A stretch of 64,000 nucleotides of DNA, taken from the sequence record PP488543.1; one strand, written 5' to 3'. Every line of letters begins with the position of its first letter. Position 1 is the first letter of the stretch. This DNA comes from Escherichia phage BP9. Below, one piece after another: positions 49,839 through 59,890 of the stretch. Under the pieces are notes generated by a model. It did not search any database. It was not told where the DNA came from and saw only the letters and a list, made by a program, of their open reading frames with translations. The translations under genes and the position numbers were made by a program.

Positions 49839-50738
49839 ATGATTTTCATCTACGAACATTTCAAAACCCGTAAAGAAGCAAGAGACCGCCGTGCAGAACT
49901 TGAGAAGAAGGGTTTCATATGTGCCATTGAGAAAGGCGACACAACCTGGACACTGGCAGTTGGTGCCCCAGAGTTGTTCGATCCTGACCGTGACAGCGTC
50001 TGCTACACCCGTGAAGATTTTGAAACCCGCGAAGAGGCCCGTTTATTTCGATACGGTCTGGAAGATAACGGTAAGTACGCCATGATCTTAGATTTAGGCG
50101 AAGGGTCCGTTAAACGTTGGGGCGTGGTATACCCACTGTGTGTTGTTCATGGTGTGGGGTTCACTGGGGTAGCAATCAAGTCAGAAGAACCTTTAGTAGA
50201 AGTCAAAGATCCGGTGCTGGAGGTGGTGAGCAGTGTATCTCAGCAACAGACTCGAAGTATTGAGCCTTTGGTAGTTATTTGTGGGGAACTCCTCCAGATC
50301 ACCTGCAACGAAGGCATTTTTGAAATTCGCCGCAGTGAAAGTGAGGAAGTTTACCAGAAAGTCTTCGACCATATCTCTGTCCAGAAATATGACGAGGCAA
50401 TTGGTGAAATCCTTGTCTGGTTGGAACGCAAGAATGAGTTCACTACACTTGCAGACAACCTGATCATGAAAGATGGTAAGCTCTACTACTACGGTGTAGA
50501 GATGCGATCCACCATTGCAAAGAAAATTGAGAAAGATTATGCAGACGGAACACTAGATGACCGCTATGTGAAATTCCTAGTTCGCCTGCTACGCAATCCT
50601 TCTGCAAAATCTGTAAACATGCTCTACGATTTTATGCAGGCCAACGATATCCAGCTTGCAGAAGATGGTCGAATCATTTGCTACAAAGGAGTTCATTTTC
50701 CATCGTTTTTTTGCCGAGCAGGAGCTGGAGTTCTTTAA
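49839..50738 (+). CDS. hypothetical protein with two N-terminal repeats; 3' end replaced by IS2 sequence (possible rIIB-like partner, unverified)
   Basis: Repeats [19 protein letters not shown] / [18 protein letters not shown]; the last ~17 codons are encoded by IS2-derived DNA (IS2 homology begins at about 50688), so the native C-terminus is lost. Confidence 0.4.
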
Positions 50739-50976
50739 TCTGCTTCATGGCAGCAGCAAGTTCAGAGGCAGGAACGACCTGTTCTCCTGCGGCCACAGCA
50801 GTAAGACTTCCCTCCTGGTATTGCTTGCGCCAGAGAAATAACTGGCTGGCTGCCACACCGTGTTGCCGGGCAACAAGGGAGACCGTCATTCCCGGTTCAA
50901 AGCTCTGCTGAACAATAGCGATCTTTTCCTGTGTAGTACGCCGTCTGCGTTTCTCCGGTCCTAAGACATCAATCAT
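50674..50976 (-). pseudogene. insC: truncated IS2 insC (orfA) reading out of the IS fragment into phage DNA
   Basis: InsC N-terminal ~96 aa are intact, then the frame runs across the junction at about 50688 and terminates at 50674. Confidence 0.8.
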
Positions 50977-51067
50977 CTGCTCTCCAATGACTAGTCTAAA
51001 AACTAGTATTAAGACTATCACTTATTTAAGTGATATTGGTTGTCTGGAGATTCAGGGGGCCAGTCTA
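50688..51067 (-). mobile_element. IS2 fragment (left inverted repeat plus 5' part of insC/orfA), truncated internally
   Basis: Reverse complement matches the IS2 left end TAGACTGGCCCCCTGAATCTCCAGACAACCAATATCACTTAAATAAGTGATAG... and the start of InsC ([84 protein letters not shown]..); only ~380 bp of the 1.3-kb element is present. Confidence 0.9.
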
Positions 51068-52261: not shown

Positions 52262-52880
52262 ACAATTCCAGCGAGCTGCTGGTATTAGAGAGGCGCTGGC
52301 CGCTCGCTGGTTCTCGCATATAACTTCTGCGATGAAAGAGTTTGGTATCAGCAAAGCAGAGGATCAGGCAATGTTTATTGCTCAGGTCGGGCATGAATCT
52401 GTGGGCTTCACCAGATTGCAGGAGAATTTCAACTACAGTGTCAGCGGTCTGGCTAACTTCGTTCGGGCTGGGCGTCTCACTCAGGGGCAGGCTAATGCAC
52501 TGGGTCGCCGTGCTGGTGAACCACCATTGCCACTCGAGCGCCAGCGAGCGATCGCCAATCTGGTGTACAGCAAACGCATGGGGAACAATTCCCCTGGTGA
52601 CGGCTGGAATTACCGAGGCCGTGGACTTATCCAGATTACCGGTTTGAATAACTATCGTGACTGCGGAAACGGCCTGAAAGTGGACCTGCTGGAGAATCCT
52701 GAACTGTTAGCGCAGGACGAATATGCGGCTCGTAGCGCGGCGTGGTTCTTCTCCAGCAAAGGTTGCATGAAGTATACCGGCGATATTGCACGTGTAACTT
52801 TGATTATCAATGGTGGCAGGAACGGCATCGACGACCGGAGAGCGCGGTACATCACTGCCAGTAAGGTGCTGGCGGTATGA
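52251..52880 (+). CDS. endolysin, glycoside hydrolase family 19 (chitinase-like lysozyme)
   Basis: GH19 signatures ([12 protein letters not shown] ... [16 protein letters not shown]) in a lysis-cassette context. Confidence 0.8.
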
Positions 52881-53359
52881 TCTGGGCATTCGTAAAAGCA
52901 TACTGGAAACAGTTGCTTATCGTGGCGGTGCTTGCTGTTCTGGTCATATCAGGGGTTGTTGCCTGGAATGTACACGGTAGTCGTCAGTACGACGCCGGGT
53001 ATGCACAGGCGAAAGAAGACCGCAAAACCGAAGATGAGAGAGTTCGTCAGCACTACGAACAGGAGAAATCGATCAATGAACGTGAAGCGCAGCAGAGGAT
53101 CGACCAGGCGCGCAATGATGCTCTTGATGCTGCCGCTCGCGCTGGCCGGTTGCAGCAACAGCTCGTTGCCATCCGTGAGCAGCTCAGGCAGTATAACGCC
53201 ATTGTCGGCGCTGGGACGTCAGCCGCAGACACCGGAGTTTTGCTTGCCGACGTGCTCAGTAAATCTCTCGAGAGAAACAGACAACTGGCAGAGTATGCTG
53301 ACCGGGCAGCCGAAGCCGGAAGAGTCTGTGAAAAACAGTACGACACCCTGACCAGATAG
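52877..53359 (+). CDS. Rz: i-spanin (Rz-like)
   Basis: N-terminal transmembrane segment ([18 protein letters not shown]) followed by coiled-coil periplasmic domain; contains an embedded lipoprotein gene in another frame. Confidence 0.65.
53076..53351 (+). CDS. Rz1: o-spanin (Rz1-like outer-membrane lipoprotein) embedded within Rz
   Basis: ATG at 53076 preceded by AGGAGAAATCGATCA; lipobox LALAGC ([30 protein letters not shown]), Pro-rich mature part; entirely inside the Rz gene in a different frame. Confidence 0.7.
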   Translation: MNVKRSRGSTRRAMMLLMLPLALAGCSNSSLPSVSSSGSITPLSALGRQPQTPEFCLPTCSVNLSRETDNWQSMLTGQPKPEESVKNSTTP

Positions 53360-53532
53360 CATGGCATTTTTCATGGTACTGATTTCCGGTGACGGTATAT
53401 AAAACGGTACGGTAAAAATTGAGATTTGGAAAAATGTTATCACTCAATTGGTTATGGTATCCGTAAATAATTGAGTGGGAATGATTAACAGCTAACTCAT
53501 AGCAAATCATTCCTATTCAGATGCTAACTCAA

Positions 53533-53566
53533 CCCTCTGTTTTTGCAGAGGGTTTTTGTTTTTATG
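53533..53566 (+). terminator. rho-independent terminator downstream of the lysis cassette
   Basis: ccctctg-tttttg-cagaggg hairpin followed by tttttgtttttat. Confidence 0.6.
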
Positions 53567-53676
53567 TATTCATTTCTATTCACTCTACACCATATTTTTC
53601 GGCGGTACAGGTGACGGTATTACCTTAAAGGTATACTCTCATACCGTCATGAAAATGGTTTCTATATGGGTGAATT

Positions 53677-54933
53677 GTGCTTACCGATACAAAATTAAAA
53701 AACCTCAAGCCGCAGGACAAACTGTACAAGGTCTCCGACCGTGACGGGCTGTATGTAGCTGTGCTTACGTCAGGCACGGTCTCGTTTCGCTATGACTACC
53801 GTATCAACGGTCGCCGCGAAACACTGGTAATCGGGCAGTATGGGCGTGACGGTATCAGCCTGGCAGAAGCGCGAGAAGAACTGATTGCTGCAAAGAAGCT
53901 GCTTAAAGCAGGCCAGTCACCGGCTGCGGCTAAACGTGACGGTATCAAAAAGATTCGTGGTGCCGAGACGTTTGCGGTACATACCGACAGTTATATGAAA
54001 CACGTCATCCTGGCTGACAGTACCCGCGCAATGAAGCAGGCGGTGATCGACCGTGACATACTTCCGGTTCTTGGCAACAAAATGATGGCTGAAATTACCA
54101 CATCGATGGTTCGTGATTTGTGTGACCGGATTGTCGAACGCGGTGGTCGGGCAACAGCAGTACAGGCCAGGGAGATCATCAGCAGCGTATACCGTCACGC
54201 CAATGACCGTGGTCATGGTTTGTTTAATCCTGCGGCTGACATTAAACCTTCGTCTATCGCCATATTTAAACCACGAGAGCGAACACTGACACCAGAAGAA
54301 ATTGGCCTGTTCTTCCGCACGCTGGATGCCATTGGTGCTATGGGCACTATGAAAATGGCTTTAAAGCTGGTGCTTATCACTATGGTTCGTAAAGGCGAAT
54401 TCACCAATGCAACGTGGGATGAAATAGATTTTAAAAAATGGACATGGACAATTCCTTCAGACCGCATGAAGGGAAGCCGGGCGCACGTTATTTACCTGCC
54501 TAAACAGGCACAGGATATATTGGTTGGGTTGCAGATGTGCGCTGGTGGAAGTGAATATCTGGTTCCTGGTCGTTACAATTTCCGGAAGCCATTATCTAAT
54601 GCCGCGCTGAACTCTCTGATCGACAGAACGGTGAAAATAATAAATGAAGATGGTGAGCATATTCAGGGCTTCACCGTACACGATATGCGCCGTACAGCCA
54701 GTACGTTGTTGCATGAGGCTGGTTATCCTTCAGACTGGATTGAAAAGGCGCTGGCACATGAGCAGAAAGGTGTGCGCGCCGTATATAACAAAGCGGAATA
54801 CGCCAGACAGCGCGCCTGGATGTTGCAGCAGTGGGCCGATATGATTGATTCCTGGATTAACGGGGAGCATACGGATCTGATTCCGTTCTCCCCGTCGAAG
54901 TTTGAGAGGTGGATGGAAGACAGTAATAAATAA
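53677..54933 (+). CDS. int: tyrosine integrase, P4-like family
   Basis: N-terminus MLTDTKLKNLKPQDKLYKVSDRDGLYVAVLTSGTVSFRYDYRINGRRETLVIGQYG is the classic P4-type integrase arm-binding domain; the C-terminal catalytic region contains HDMRRT and a tyrosine near the end (RAVYNKAEY). Confidence 0.9.
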   Translation: MLTDTKLKNLKPQDKLYKVSDRDGLYVAVLTSGTVSFRYDYRINGRRETLVIGQYGRDGISLAEAREELIAAKKLLKAGQSPAAAKRDGIKKIRGAETFAVHTDSYMKHVILADSTRAMKQAVIDRDILPVLGNKMMAEITTSMVRDLCDRIVERGGRATAVQAREIISSVYRHANDRGHGLFNPAADIKPSSIAIFKPRERTLTPEEIGLFFRTLDAIGAMGTMKMALKLVLITMVRKGEFTNATWDEIDFKKWTWTIPSDRMKGSRAHVIYLPKQAQDILVGLQMCAGGSEYLVPGRYNFRKPLSNAALNSLIDRTVKIINEDGEHIQGFTVHDMRRTASTLLHEAGYPSDWIEKALAHEQKGVRAVYNKAEYARQRAWMLQQWADMIDSWINGEHTDLIPFSPSKFERWMEDSNK

Positions 54934-56643: not shown

Positions 56644-56892
56644 TCATGCAGCGTTGCTCACAGGACGATATACACGTTGCTGAACAGGAGGCTTTTTACC
56701 CTGGAACTCTGCCGGGCTTGCTGCCTGACGTTCATCAAGCCAACGCTCAACTTCATCACGGTTCCATGCGCAGCGTTTGTCAGTGATATACCAGCGTTTA
56801 GGAAATTCCCCTGCGCGCTCCATGCGGTCGATAGTGCTCCATGACAGTGGCACCACCGCCAGGAGTTCCTTCTTACCTAATGCACCTTTCAT
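56644..56892 (-). CDS. AlpA-family transcriptional regulator / putative excisionase
   Basis: MerR-like helix-turn-helix (..ELLAVVPLSWSTIDRMERAGEFPKRWYITDKRCAWNRDEVERWL) typical of AlpA/Xis proteins that accompany P4-type integrases. Confidence 0.6.
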   Translation of the reverse strand: MKGALGKKELLAVVPLSWSTIDRMERAGEFPKRWYITDKRCAWNRDEVERWLDERQAASPAEFQGKKPPVQQRVYRPVSNAA

Positions 56893-59305: not shown

Positions 59306-59890
59306 TTATTGTTTGTTTTTTTCGTTCTGGTTGATGACAAATTCAATGTAACTTTCGATCTTTGCTTTCTCGGTTTCGGGTAACAATGCGTAGCGCGAGC
59401 GGTCATAGTTGATGGTCGCAGGGTCGTGCGGGTGAATCAGTAATTCATAGCCGTGACGCCCGAATGCGGATGCAACATTCTCCAGGGTGGAAATGGAAAC
59501 GCTGACCTCATTGTTTAACAGGCGGCTGATTGTCACCTGGGCGACGCCGGATGCGCGGTGAAGTTTTCCCTGTGTTGAAAGGTCGCGGCTTTCGCTCATC
59601 CAGCGTTCCAGGTTGTGAGCCGCCAGCTGACCAATGTCGCTTGGGCCGACAGGCTGAAAACCTTCCTGAGAAAGCGAGCGATCGATATCAAGCCAGTTAC
59701 GGGGTTTATTGGCGGCAGCTTCAATTTTTCGCGCAACCTGGTCGCCGATAACCTTCTTGCCAAGAGCCCAGCGGTTTACCAGATTTGCCTGAGTTCCAAG
59801 TTTTTCTGCCATCCGCGTCTGAACACCATTGAATTCACGGTCGATCAAGTCGTTGAGATTTTGCCTGCGGACGTCCTGGATACTTTTCAT
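59306..59890 (-). CDS. CI-like repressor with helix-turn-helix domain(s) and no recognisable LexA/S24 peptidase domain
   Basis: Divergent from a cro-like gene; helix-turn-helix segment QTRMAEKLGTQANLVNRWALGKKVIGDQVARKI and a second HTH-like segment ASGVAQVTISRLLNNEVSVSISTLENVASAF; operators on both sides. Confidence 0.6.
   Translation of the reverse strand: MKSIQDVRRQNLNDLIDREFNGVQTRMAEKLGTQANLVNRWALGKKVIGDQVARKIEAAANKPRNWLDIDRSLSQEGFQPVGPSDIGQLAAHNLERWMSESRDLSTQGKLHRASGVAQVTISRLLNNEVSVSISTLENVASAFGRHGYELLIHPHDPATINYDRSRYALLPETEKAKIESYIEFVINQNEKNKQ

Follow-up and report, generated by a model that had tools for sequence, protein, structure and literature searches.

The 317 bp between the stop codon of Rz (53359) and the GTG start codon of int (53677), that is 53360-53676, form together with the first ~270 bp of int what is almost certainly the attP of a temperate podophage of the phiV10/epsilon15 type (genus Uetakevirus), an assignment against which no observation speaks. 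The attP of phages of this type, with guaA as its target, has already been published. Across Rz, attP and int the nucleotide identity is 96-98% to phiV10, ZX5, EC.W1-9 and the typing phages, and 86-87% to epsilon15 and SPN1S, and the attP regions of phiV10, ZX5 and epsilon15 share with the present one the gene order Rz, attP, int, the 17-bp core, the guaA 3' target, the GTGACGGTAT repeats and the terminator, with only point differences within the attP region. The Rz-like gene is the last of the late/lysis operon and provides the left boundary of the region, and in alignments that include a set of 13 sequences the blocks kept across genera coincide with the named attP elements (Table 1). The window, by which is meant the whole 64,000-nucleotide stretch that was analysed, is itself chimeric, being composed of a Uetakevirus, an rV5-like phage and a fragment of IS2; the phage segment starts inside the tailspike gene beside the IS2 fragment and is fused to the rV5-like phage. 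The Uetakevirus element has its attP in the uninterrupted configuration; no second att site or prophage end was found in the window, where the core is unique and long direct repeats are absent, as follows from its chimeric nature.

The attP common core is the 17-mer ATTGAGTGGGAATGATT, which is present in the window as a single, exact copy. It is the sole sequence common to attL and attR of one E. coli prophage; in E. coli 50579417 the 17-mer is shared by the guaA-attL-int and Rz-attR-yfgI junctions, with guaA on the int side, and in GPEC403-625 direct repeats of the core likewise bound the prophage, and guaA again lies on the side of int. The chromosomal match breaks exactly at window position 53470, which is the 3' end of guaA, in 569 E. 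coli genomes. The original prediction was right that an attP core is present here, but had recognised neither the guaA-derived core nor its match to the end of that gene. The alignment to attB that it had proposed returns the guaA 3' end as the core and, for 4463 of 5426 genomes, an attB that is uninterrupted. It is of relevance to annotation pipelines that ~18% of complete E. coli genomes have this site occupied. Beyond E. coli, guaA lies directly upstream of int in ten genome loci from other genera, and even Int homologues of down to 52-58% identity (Chromobacterium, Aquitalea and a Burkholderiales MAG) are found directly after guaA. The same 17-mer has been published as the core of phiV10, epsilon15 and ZX5; for ZX5, integration was established from attB, attL and attR by PCR and sequencing, with phiV10 and epsilon15 cited alongside (PMC9782041). 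In the proposed mechanism Int would recombine the core with its exact counterpart at the host guaA 3' end, and because the final five codons of guaA, stop codon included, are present in the phage core, GMP synthase would be unchanged by integration. Within the core we infer a 7-bp overlap, GAGTGGG (53473-53479), placed between the imperfect dyad AATAATT / AATGATT.

Why, then, is there no tRNA beside an integrase that was originally described as P4-type? The absence itself is borne out, in that ARAGORN found no tRNA or tmRNA in the whole window, and in 52800-54200 Rfam returned no tRNA/tmRNA match even at E <= 10 and no family near its gathering threshold. The absence had been taken as an anomaly, but the missing tRNA is expected because the integrase belongs to the epsilon15 cluster, all members of which target the 3' flank of guaA (PMC8138268; PMC9782041), so that within this cluster a 'P4-type' integrase normally has no tRNA beside it. 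A P4-type attP that targets a tRNA or tmRNA was rejected on the negative ARAGORN and Rfam searches and on a core that is guaA coding sequence. The present integrase, in which Pfam recognises Arm-DNA-bind_3 (4e-20), Phage_int_M and Phage_integrase (6e-19), shares with the P4 / Sf6 / CP4-57 type integrases the arm-binding, central and catalytic domains. The two also have in common an attP that adjoins the 5' end of int, repeated arm-type sites that flank the core, and a core that repeats the target gene's 3' end and hence restores that gene; the difference is that those integrases target tRNA/tmRNA genes, whereas the target here is protein-coding and the attP contains no tRNA-like sequence.

Table 1 Coordinates of the attP elements and of the associated genes and sites in the window.
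Feature	Coordinates	Strand	Sequence	Remarks
Rz-like spanin gene (DUF2514)	52877-53359	+		Pfam DUF2514 E = 6.6e-44; Rz-like in phiV10 and epsilon15 annotation
P-arm block	53384-53409	+	TTCCGGTGACGGTATATAAAACGGTA	Invariant in 6 Uetakeviruses from 4 host genera; flanks vary
Arm-type site P1	53389-53398	+	GTGACGGTAT	Inside P-arm block; CGGTA half-copy 12 bp downstream
IHF-like site(s), conserved	53438-53457	+	TCAATnnnTTAtG	Directly left of core; consensus match only; includes CACTCAATT
attP common core	53470-53486	+	ATTGAGTGGGAATGATT	17 bp; last 15 nt of guaA (I-E-W-E-stop) + TT
Core hairpin	53472-53519	+	TGAGTGGGAATGATT/AATCATTCCTATTCA	5' arm is core; 3' arm is near-copy of inverted core
Direct repeat	53507-53519, 53570-53582	+	TCATT(C/T)CTATTCA	Flanks terminator; 63 bp apart
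Intrinsic terminator	53531-53563	+	AACCCTCTGT-TTTT-GCAGAGGGTT, then T-run	Stem 53531-53554, 10 bp
Arm-type site P'1	53611-53620	+	GTGACGGTAT	Preceded by CGGTA half-copy 53602-53607; P'-arm feature 53600-53620
Operator-like palindrome	53619-53635	.	ATTACC-TTAAA-GGTATA	Candidate low-affinity repressor operator over putative int promoter
Putative int promoter -10 hexamer	53632-53637	+	TATACT	Overlaps right half of palindrome
Arm-type site P'2, inverted	53641-53649	-	TGACGGTAT	Around predicted int transcription start (near 53643-53645)
int, tyrosine integrase, epsilon15 cluster	53677-54933	+		N-terminal arm-type DNA-binding domain (residues 1-87); placement from literature (PMC8138268)
Intragenic arm-type site P'3	53846-53855	+	GTGACGGTAT	int codons R-D-G-I
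Intragenic arm-type site P'4	53936-53945	+	GTGACGGTAT	int codons R-D-G-I
AlpA-family small HTH protein	56644-56892	-		Pfam Phage_AlpA 3.1e-05; AlpA family in BUCT711 and BUCT554 annotation
Repressor operators	59172, 59234, 59946, 59994, 62253, 62315		TTACC-N5-GGTAA	Homologous 'repressor' sites annotated in epsilon15
Phage repressor gene	59306-59890	-		HTH_3

The repeats, the terminator and the palindrome that had been listed for this region are all where they were placed, and they are non-random: an 11-mer direct repeat would arise by chance with P = 0.026, and there are 8 pairs of perfectly matching inverted 8-nt arms with a loop of <=30 nt, against 0.22 in shuffles. The 11-bp direct repeat GGTGACGGTAT (53388-53398 and 53610-53620), with its inverted copy ATACCGTCA at 53641-53649, had been proposed as an arm-type site, an interpretation that is strengthened by the epsilon15 annotation and by intragenic copies kept at synonymous positions. 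The shorter motif TGACGGTAT occurs 6 times in the 64 kb against 0.31 expected, with all copies lying within 53390-54197 (~800 bp), and int carries three more copies of the arm-type motif (53847, 53937 and 54189) that the original prediction did not contain. In the GenBank record of epsilon15 an 'integrase' protein_bind feature is annotated at P1, and P'1, P'3 and P'4 are also annotated. The GTGACGGTAT repeats are the expected ligand of the N-terminal arm-binding domain of Int, which would occupy P1, P'1, the inverted P'2, and P'3 and P'4, the last two inside int itself. The conservation of the intragenic sites is strict, with all 9 positions of P'3 and P'4, including 3/3 third-codon positions, invariant in 10 sequences, as compared with 16% of third-codon positions over int as a whole; by way of internal control, a third stretch that encodes R-D-G, at 53740, does vary at synonymous sites. 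At P'1 both CGGTA and TGACGGTAT are invariant in 13 sequences, and the distant loci of Chromobacterium and Aquitalea, where the identity of Int is only 52-58%, still have GACGGTA. P'2 is conserved for the most part; its changes in BUCT554 and Superficieibacter are uncompensated, which argues for a DNA site and against an RNA stem.

Around the core itself, the two inverted repeats that had been suggested as att elements do bracket and contain it. In the first, CACTCAATT (53442-50) pairs with AATTGAGTG (53469-77), and in the second GAATGATT (53479-86) pairs with AATCATTC (53505-12), such that each uses one half of the core. The block directly to the left of the core is conserved in the alignment and annotated as IHF in epsilon15, and three overlapping matches to the IHF consensus WATCAANNNNTTR, with <=1 mismatch, fall at 53438-53476. 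This local cluster is suggestive, and IHF-like sites so placed would bend the DNA into an intasome; the consensus is degenerate, and across the window its matches are not enriched (79 observed, 78 expected). Both copies of the TCATT(C/T)CTATTCA repeat, which was absent from the original prediction, resemble the inverted core. CTATTCA is kept at both places in 13 enterobacterial sequences, and Chromobacterium, Aquitalea and the Burkholderiales MAG have lineage-specific repeats at the same two places.

The terminator that had been called in this region is real, its 10-bp stem and T-run giving a fold z-score of -4.8; pairing in the stem is 100% across 13 sequences, among which there are three G.U changes, each on one side only. 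All ten guaA-linked genome loci have a terminator at the same place, and the native guaA terminator has an identical stem. In the free phage the terminator ends the late operon. In the lysogen it replaces the displaced guaA terminator, ending the guaBA transcript and shielding int from guaBA read-through.

What controls the expression of int? The palindrome ATTACCttaaaGGTAT (53619-53634) had been described as operator-like, and it is a near-consensus match to the hyphenated 17-bp family operator of the epsilon15/SPC32H type, ATTACC-N5-GGTAAT, with a perfect left half and a right half, GGTATA, that agrees at 4/6 positions. Its matrix score of 15.4 bits ranks 6 in the phage part of the window, with 0.005 such matches expected by chance per 12.5 kb, and is comparable to the 15.1 bits of the weakest accepted OR operator. 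The accessible part of the epsilon15 annotation mentions neither this operator-class match nor the intragenic synonymous-site conservation, and the epsilon15 record labels the homologous palindrome RNaseIII, with no repressor-site call. The -10-like hexamer that the palindrome overlaps reads TATAAT in epsilon15 and TATATT in Superficieibacter, and T-A-T-A-x-T is kept in 13 sequences. A consensus scan found no sigma-70 promoter in 53200-53800, nor a good -35 for int, the best candidate being GTGACG with a 15-bp spacer, and a weak promoter with TATACT as its -10 probably drives int. Repressor control of int is plausible because the palindrome is operator-grade and overlaps a conserved -10-like hexamer, and with a near-consensus operator across the promoter silencing of int in the lysogen would be possible. 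This offers a cheap, testable hypothesis for how int is silenced in lysogens. The geometry of operator and promoter at the other operators is heterogeneous and uninformative. As two arm-type sites bracket the int promoter, Int autoregulation would be possible as well. The Int of P4 binds repeats near its own promoter. A small protein of the AlpA family is the probable excisionase (recombination directionality factor) and would work with int.

These elements can be joined in a single reading, which we regard as possible and hold tentatively. Here an int promoter embedded in the P' arm would be under dual control, by the repressor acting on a deliberately weakened operator, the right half of which doubles as the -10, and by Int acting on the flanking arm-type sites. 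With two arm-type sites inside int under selection at synonymous positions, the functional attP would extend over ~560 bp, part of them within int itself. In the lysogen the prophage would also supply the mRNA of the essential guaA with a new 3' end, composed of a hairpin of the last guaA codons and phage sequence followed by the phage copy of the guaA terminator, and if this is true the expression of guaA in lysogens could be altered. In the accessible literature no dual control of int, no synonymous-site extension of attP and no effect on the guaA mRNA 3' end is described. The int transcripts in the ZX5 paper were measured solely under int overexpression.

The same elements have been weighed against other explanations. 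That 53360-53676 might be no more than the 3' untranslated end of the lysis operon with its terminator, and attP elsewhere or a defective integrase, draws on the conserved intrinsic terminator in the middle of the region, but is refuted by the prophage junction data and can be given next to no credence: the junctions of prophages in hundreds of E. coli genomes fall precisely within the region, tandem lysogens restore it intact between two prophage copies, and the core has been experimentally confirmed (PMC9782041). It is unlikely, too, though considerably less so, that the hairpins at 53440-78, 53472-53519 and 53611-50 act as RNA, as RNase III processing sites that in a lambda sib-like manner control the stability of the late transcript, the int mRNA or the guaA mRNA 3' end in the lysogen. 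The homologous stretches are indeed annotated RNaseIII in the GenBank record of epsilon15, and all three are strong predicted hairpins, with z-scores of -5.1, -7.05 (the core hairpin, at -21 kcal/mol) and -3.8 respectively. Across 13 sequences 92% of cells in the 53472-53519 helix are still paired, and one-sided G.U to G-C changes occur opposite the fixed guaA arm, changes that are meaningful for + strand RNA only. Nevertheless, covariation in the core hairpin is not significant in these 13 sequences, with 40/500 shuffles reaching the observed score and only one pair changing on both sides, its central pair is broken in 7/13 sequences, the left hairpin has fewer pairs in epsilon15, SPN1S and the two BUCT phages, and the 53611-50 stem has uncompensated changes. 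Sib-like action is impossible because int is downstream of the hairpins, and the terminator downstream of two of them; a lambda sib-like RNase III retroregulator, which calls for a hairpin downstream of int and compensatory changes, was accordingly rejected. A role of the hairpins as RNA is compatible with attP function, to which it could merely add.

A closer contender, though again one that falls short of being probable, is that the palindrome is part of the cluster of Int arm-type sites rather than an operator, int being controlled by Int itself. Its bases do also carry the GGTA motifs of arm-type sites, and on either side it has an exact arm-type copy, the two being inverted (53612 and 53641). 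In Klebsiella phage BUCT711 and a K. pneumoniae prophage its right half is ACGGTAT, the arm-type core, and the distant guaA-targeting elements keep GACGGTA sites and are without TTACC. Against this, TACC follows GGTAT at none of the other four arm-type copies, yet is invariant here in 13/13 sequences; the half-sites of the palindrome are likewise invariant in these sequences, and its 5-bp spacer varies freely. On the matrix the palindrome outscores the accepted third OR operator both in this phage and in epsilon15, and the same operator half-site, within TTACC-N5-GGTAA, is used in 4/4 Uetakevirus genomes examined, even though their repressors are only 42-75% identical.

The organisation of the region invites comparison with other systems. 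Like the attP of lambda, whose P-O-P' layout comprises arm-type, core-type, IHF and Xis sites, it has a short core that arm-type repeats flank on either side and next to which IHF-like sites lie, and its integrase is heterobivalent; unlike in lambda, int is here transcribed away from the att site, a terminator lies within the P' arm, conserved arm-type copies reach ~460 bp to one side and into the coding sequence of int, and attB is inside the 3' end of a gene. Islands of the GIsul2 / CMGI-3 type, which belong to the epsilon15 cluster in the IntSXT subgroup of tyrosine recombinases, also integrate at the guaA 3' end and have int beside the att site and an alpA-type gene. They differ in being islands and not phages, the candidate repressor operator and lysis operon beside att being phage-specific. 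Among the matches listed from a tblastn search with Int against plasmids GIsul2 was not singled out. Its crossover lies in guaA at GAGTGGGA, inside the attP core of the present phage. The map of the region, with its core, five conserved arm-type sites, replacement terminator and palindrome, may be of help in the engineering of phiV10-type reporter phages and in studies of prophage excision.

The 317 bp between the Rz-like gene and int are an already known phage attachment site (attP), whose target is the 3' end of guaA. Over positions 53000-54100 the window is 96-98% identical to the Escherichia phages EC.W1-9, phiV10, ZX5 and the O157 typing phages, and 86-87% identical to the Salmonella phages epsilon15 and SPN1S, all of the genus Uetakevirus. 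Of 5426 complete E. coli genomes, 569 contain the same DNA, and in almost all of these the match begins exactly at window position 53470, adjoining guaA. For instance, in E. coli strain 50579417 guaA ends 15 nt inside the match, the opposite prophage end has the order Rz-attR-yfgI, and attL and attR have only ATTGAGTGGGAATGATT (window 53470-53486) in common, which comprises the four final guaA codons (I-E-W-E) with their stop, followed by TT. The core of ZX5, where attB, attL and attR were checked by PCR and sequencing, is the identical 17-mer, and the same core is cited for phiV10 and epsilon15 (PMC9782041); the suggestion that the gap holds an attP core is thereby borne out. The reconstructed empty site, guaA-yfgI, is intact in 4463 of the 5426 E. 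coli genomes. The guaA 3' attB is interrupted in the other ~963 (18%), which, set against the 569 genomes with the int region, indicates that other elements seem to use the site too, GIsul2-like islands being one possibility. GIsul2 inserts at the guaA 3' end with the crossover sequence GAGTGGGA (PMC9376610), which falls within the BP9 core.

The original prediction had treated a P4-type integrase without a tRNA as an anomaly. The absence itself stands: ARAGORN detects neither a tRNA nor a tmRNA anywhere in the window, and an Rfam scan of 52800-54200 (E <= 10) returned only noise, with no tRNA and with bit scores far under all gathering thresholds. What falls away is the anomaly, since the epsilon15 integrase, CMGI-3 and their relatives form one tyrosine recombinase cluster, all members of which target the guaA 3' flank, distinct from the tRNA-targeting P4 cluster (PMC8138268), and the lack of a tRNA is therefore expected. 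Homologues 80-90% identical to this Int are located directly after guaA in seven further genera of enterobacteria, and more distant ones (52-58%) have the same position in Chromobacterium, Aquitalea and a Burkholderiales MAG. What the present analysis adds to this known site is small: the palindrome reaches an operator-grade score, the arm sites inside int are conserved at synonymous positions, and the phage has a copy of the terminator of guaA.

The observation that the gap is rich in structured repeats is confirmed, with the repeats, inverted repeats, terminator and palindrome all recovered where they had been placed. The direct repeat GGTGACGGTAT has copies at 53388-53398 and 53610-53620 and a partial inverted copy at 53641-53649, and the inverted repeats CACTCAATT/AATTGAGTG and GAATGATT/AATCATTC are both present. 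These repeats are beyond chance: TGACGGTAT is present in six copies in 64 kb against 0.31 expected, all of them within 53390-54197; there are 8 perfect inverted repeats with 8-nt arms and short loops, where shuffles give 0.22; and z-scores for the predicted hairpins run from -3.8 to -7.05.

Features of the attP region, the phage repressor operators, the segments of the window and a tandem double lysogen
Feature	Position	Strand	Details
rV5-like (Vequintavirinae) lytic myovirus	1 to ~50,690		94-96% identity to many E. coli phages
Internal IS2 insC fragment	50,690-51,030 (segment); 50674-51021 (truncated insC fragment)	minus	no IS end on rV5 side
Uetakevirus prophage match	from 51,067		starts within 3' end of tailspike/SGNH hydrolase gene
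Rz (DUF2514)	52877-53359		
P arm TTCCGGTGACGGTATATAAAACGGTA	53384-53409		invariant in six phage-form sequences
IHF-like block TCAATnnnTTAtG	53445-57		IHF consensus, one mismatch
Core plus left flank			GTAAATAATTGAGTGGGAATGAT
Inverted near-copy of core AATCATTCCTATTCA	53505-19		
Terminator	53531-53554		stem, then T-run
Second direct copy TCATTTCTATTCA	53570-82		
P' arm			CGGTA-n4-GTGACGGTAT-TACC-n5-GGTATAC-n5-ATACCGTCA
Palindrome ATTACCttaaaGGTAT	53619-53634		
int	53677 (start)		GTG start, 418 aa
Perfect operators flanking repressor gene	59172, 59234, 59946		
Operator	59994		one mismatch
Further perfect operators	62253, 62315		
GPEC403-625 guaA-attL-int	1,379,742		
GPEC403-625 Rz-attP-int	1,420,515		
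GPEC403-625 Rz-attR-yfgI	1,461,189		

The anatomy of the site was read from two alignments, of six phage-form and thirteen P'-arm sequences, in which conserved blocks alternate with variable DNA. On the Rz side the IHF-like block is one of three such matches grouped together; across the window the IHF consensus is not enriched. From the imperfect dyad AATAATT-GAGTGGG-AATGATT one may predict a 7-bp overlap, GAGTGGG, in agreement with GIsul2. Position 53486 is T, G, C or A among the prophages of the thirteen-sequence alignment and hence probably does not belong to the exchanged segment. The copies AATCATTCCTATTCA and TCATTTCTATTCA stand on either side of the terminator, 63 bp apart. Repeats in this place (53507-53519 and 53570-53582) occur in all relatives with a lineage-specific sequence, being CTATTCA in enterics, CTATCG in Chromobacterium and Aquitalea, and CG(A/T)CTCAT in the Burkholderiales MAG, a pattern that would fit binding by an accessory protein co-evolving with them, perhaps an AlpA-type excisionase.

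The arm-type motif extends into the integrase gene. Two further copies of CGTGACGGTATC lie within int, at 53845 and 53935, and are invariant in ten sequences, including 6/6 third-codon positions, when only 16% of third-codon positions are invariant overall. A third R-D-G-coding stretch (53740), which serves as an internal control for these two copies, shows synonymous variation, and the sixth copy of the motif (54189, minus strand) is without conservation. In the epsilon15 GenBank record four of the 10-mers are already labelled as sites for the integrase, and the homologous region there also bears three annotated IHF sites, a terminator and two hairpins marked 'RNaseIII'. Int has an Arm-DNA-bind_3 domain. 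The arm-type sites of the original prediction are thus upheld as a motif that is clustered at attP, annotated in epsilon15 and conserved, with binding predicted.

The terminator, likewise correctly recognised, is real: its stem is 100% paired in thirteen sequences, and a terminator is present at this place in every guaA-linked relative, with a different sequence in the distant ones. The stem in the phage, AACCCTCTG/CAGAGGGTT, shares all 9 bp with that of the native guaA terminator, which integration displaces by ~40 kb. The best reading is a dual role: in the phage it would close the late operon, and in the lysogen it would serve as the guaA terminator and shield int from guaBA read-through. 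The shared 9-bp stem also suggests that the P' arm was derived from captured host DNA downstream of guaA.

Both inverted repeats use one half of the core as one of their arms. The left one is 9 bp long in E. coli phages only and is reduced to a palindromic TCAATT elsewhere among the six phage-form sequences; as an inverted repeat it is probably incidental, since its left arm coincides with the IHF-like site. The right one may be an RNA element located where the late transcript and, in lysogens, the guaA mRNA end, or it may be a duplicate of a core half-site that acts at the DNA level. As RNA it is predicted to pair at 15 positions, two of them G.U (-21 kcal/mol, z = -7.05), it is 92% paired in thirteen sequences, and the changes facing the fixed guaA arm convert G.U to G-C; its central pair is broken in 7/13 sequences and covariation measures over the thirteen are without significance.

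The operator-like palindrome had been taken to suggest repressor input into int expression, and this operator reading is not obviously over-interpreted. Among the 5-N5-5 palindromes of four Uetakevirus genomes TTACC-N5-GGTAA stands far ahead, with 5, 11, 9 and 8 copies against at most two for any other, and seven sites of this type are annotated as repressor-binding in the epsilon15 record. The half-site is identical in all four genomes though the repressors are only 42-75% identical. A matrix built from 16 perfect sites gives the palindrome upstream of int 15.4 bits, which ranks it sixth within the phage portion of the window and ahead of the third OR operator (15.1 bits), where chance would give ~0.005 such sites per 12.5 kb of shuffled sequence; its epsilon15 homologue (19.1 bits) likewise exceeds the third OR site of that phage. 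Across thirteen sequences both half-sites are invariant and the spacer varies. A -10-like hexamer, also conserved, overlaps the right half (TATACT in BP9, TATAAT in epsilon15, TATATT in one prophage); nothing passes a consensus promoter scan. The right half reads GGTATA, differing from GGTAAT. The GGTA motifs could instead be part of the arm-type cluster; in Klebsiella phages the right half is ACGGTAT. Repressor control of int is a reasonable hypothesis to which we would give about even odds, and autoregulation by Int through the arm-type sites P'1 (53611-53620) and P'2 (53641-53649), placed around the same putative promoter, would be compatible with it rather than exclusive. The epsilon15 operators (12, 2932, 19896, 24704, 35907 and 35969) are scattered genome-wide, before the terminase, portal, tailspike and lysis genes and at the immunity region, so that late operons are apparently silenced directly by the repressor.

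The window does not represent a chromosomally integrated prophage. Its rV5-like, IS2 and Uetakevirus segments, with junctions near 50690 and at 51030-51067, form a chimera that resembles a misassembled or illegitimately joined sequence rather than a natural genome. Within the Uetakevirus part attP is uninterrupted, a configuration found in free or circular phage DNA or between the copies of a tandem double lysogen, and the window holds no second att site. Five complete E. coli chromosomes have an intact Rz-attP-int junction; the one examined, GPEC403-625 (NZ_CM142769.1, 1,379,742-1,461,189), is a tandem double lysogen at guaA with attL, attP and attR at 40.8 kb spacing. Two 41,027-bp circular 'plasmids' of duck E. 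coli (NZ_CP079771.1 and NZ_CP079768.1) are of Uetakevirus size, carry a BP9-type int (98% protein identity) and probably derive from phage DNA that was excised or replicating when the culture was sequenced. Finally, some 18 'Campylobacter phage' records (MG0656xx; host Campylobacter jejuni) match rV5-like E. coli phages at 95-96% over 25 kb, and their host labels look doubtful.
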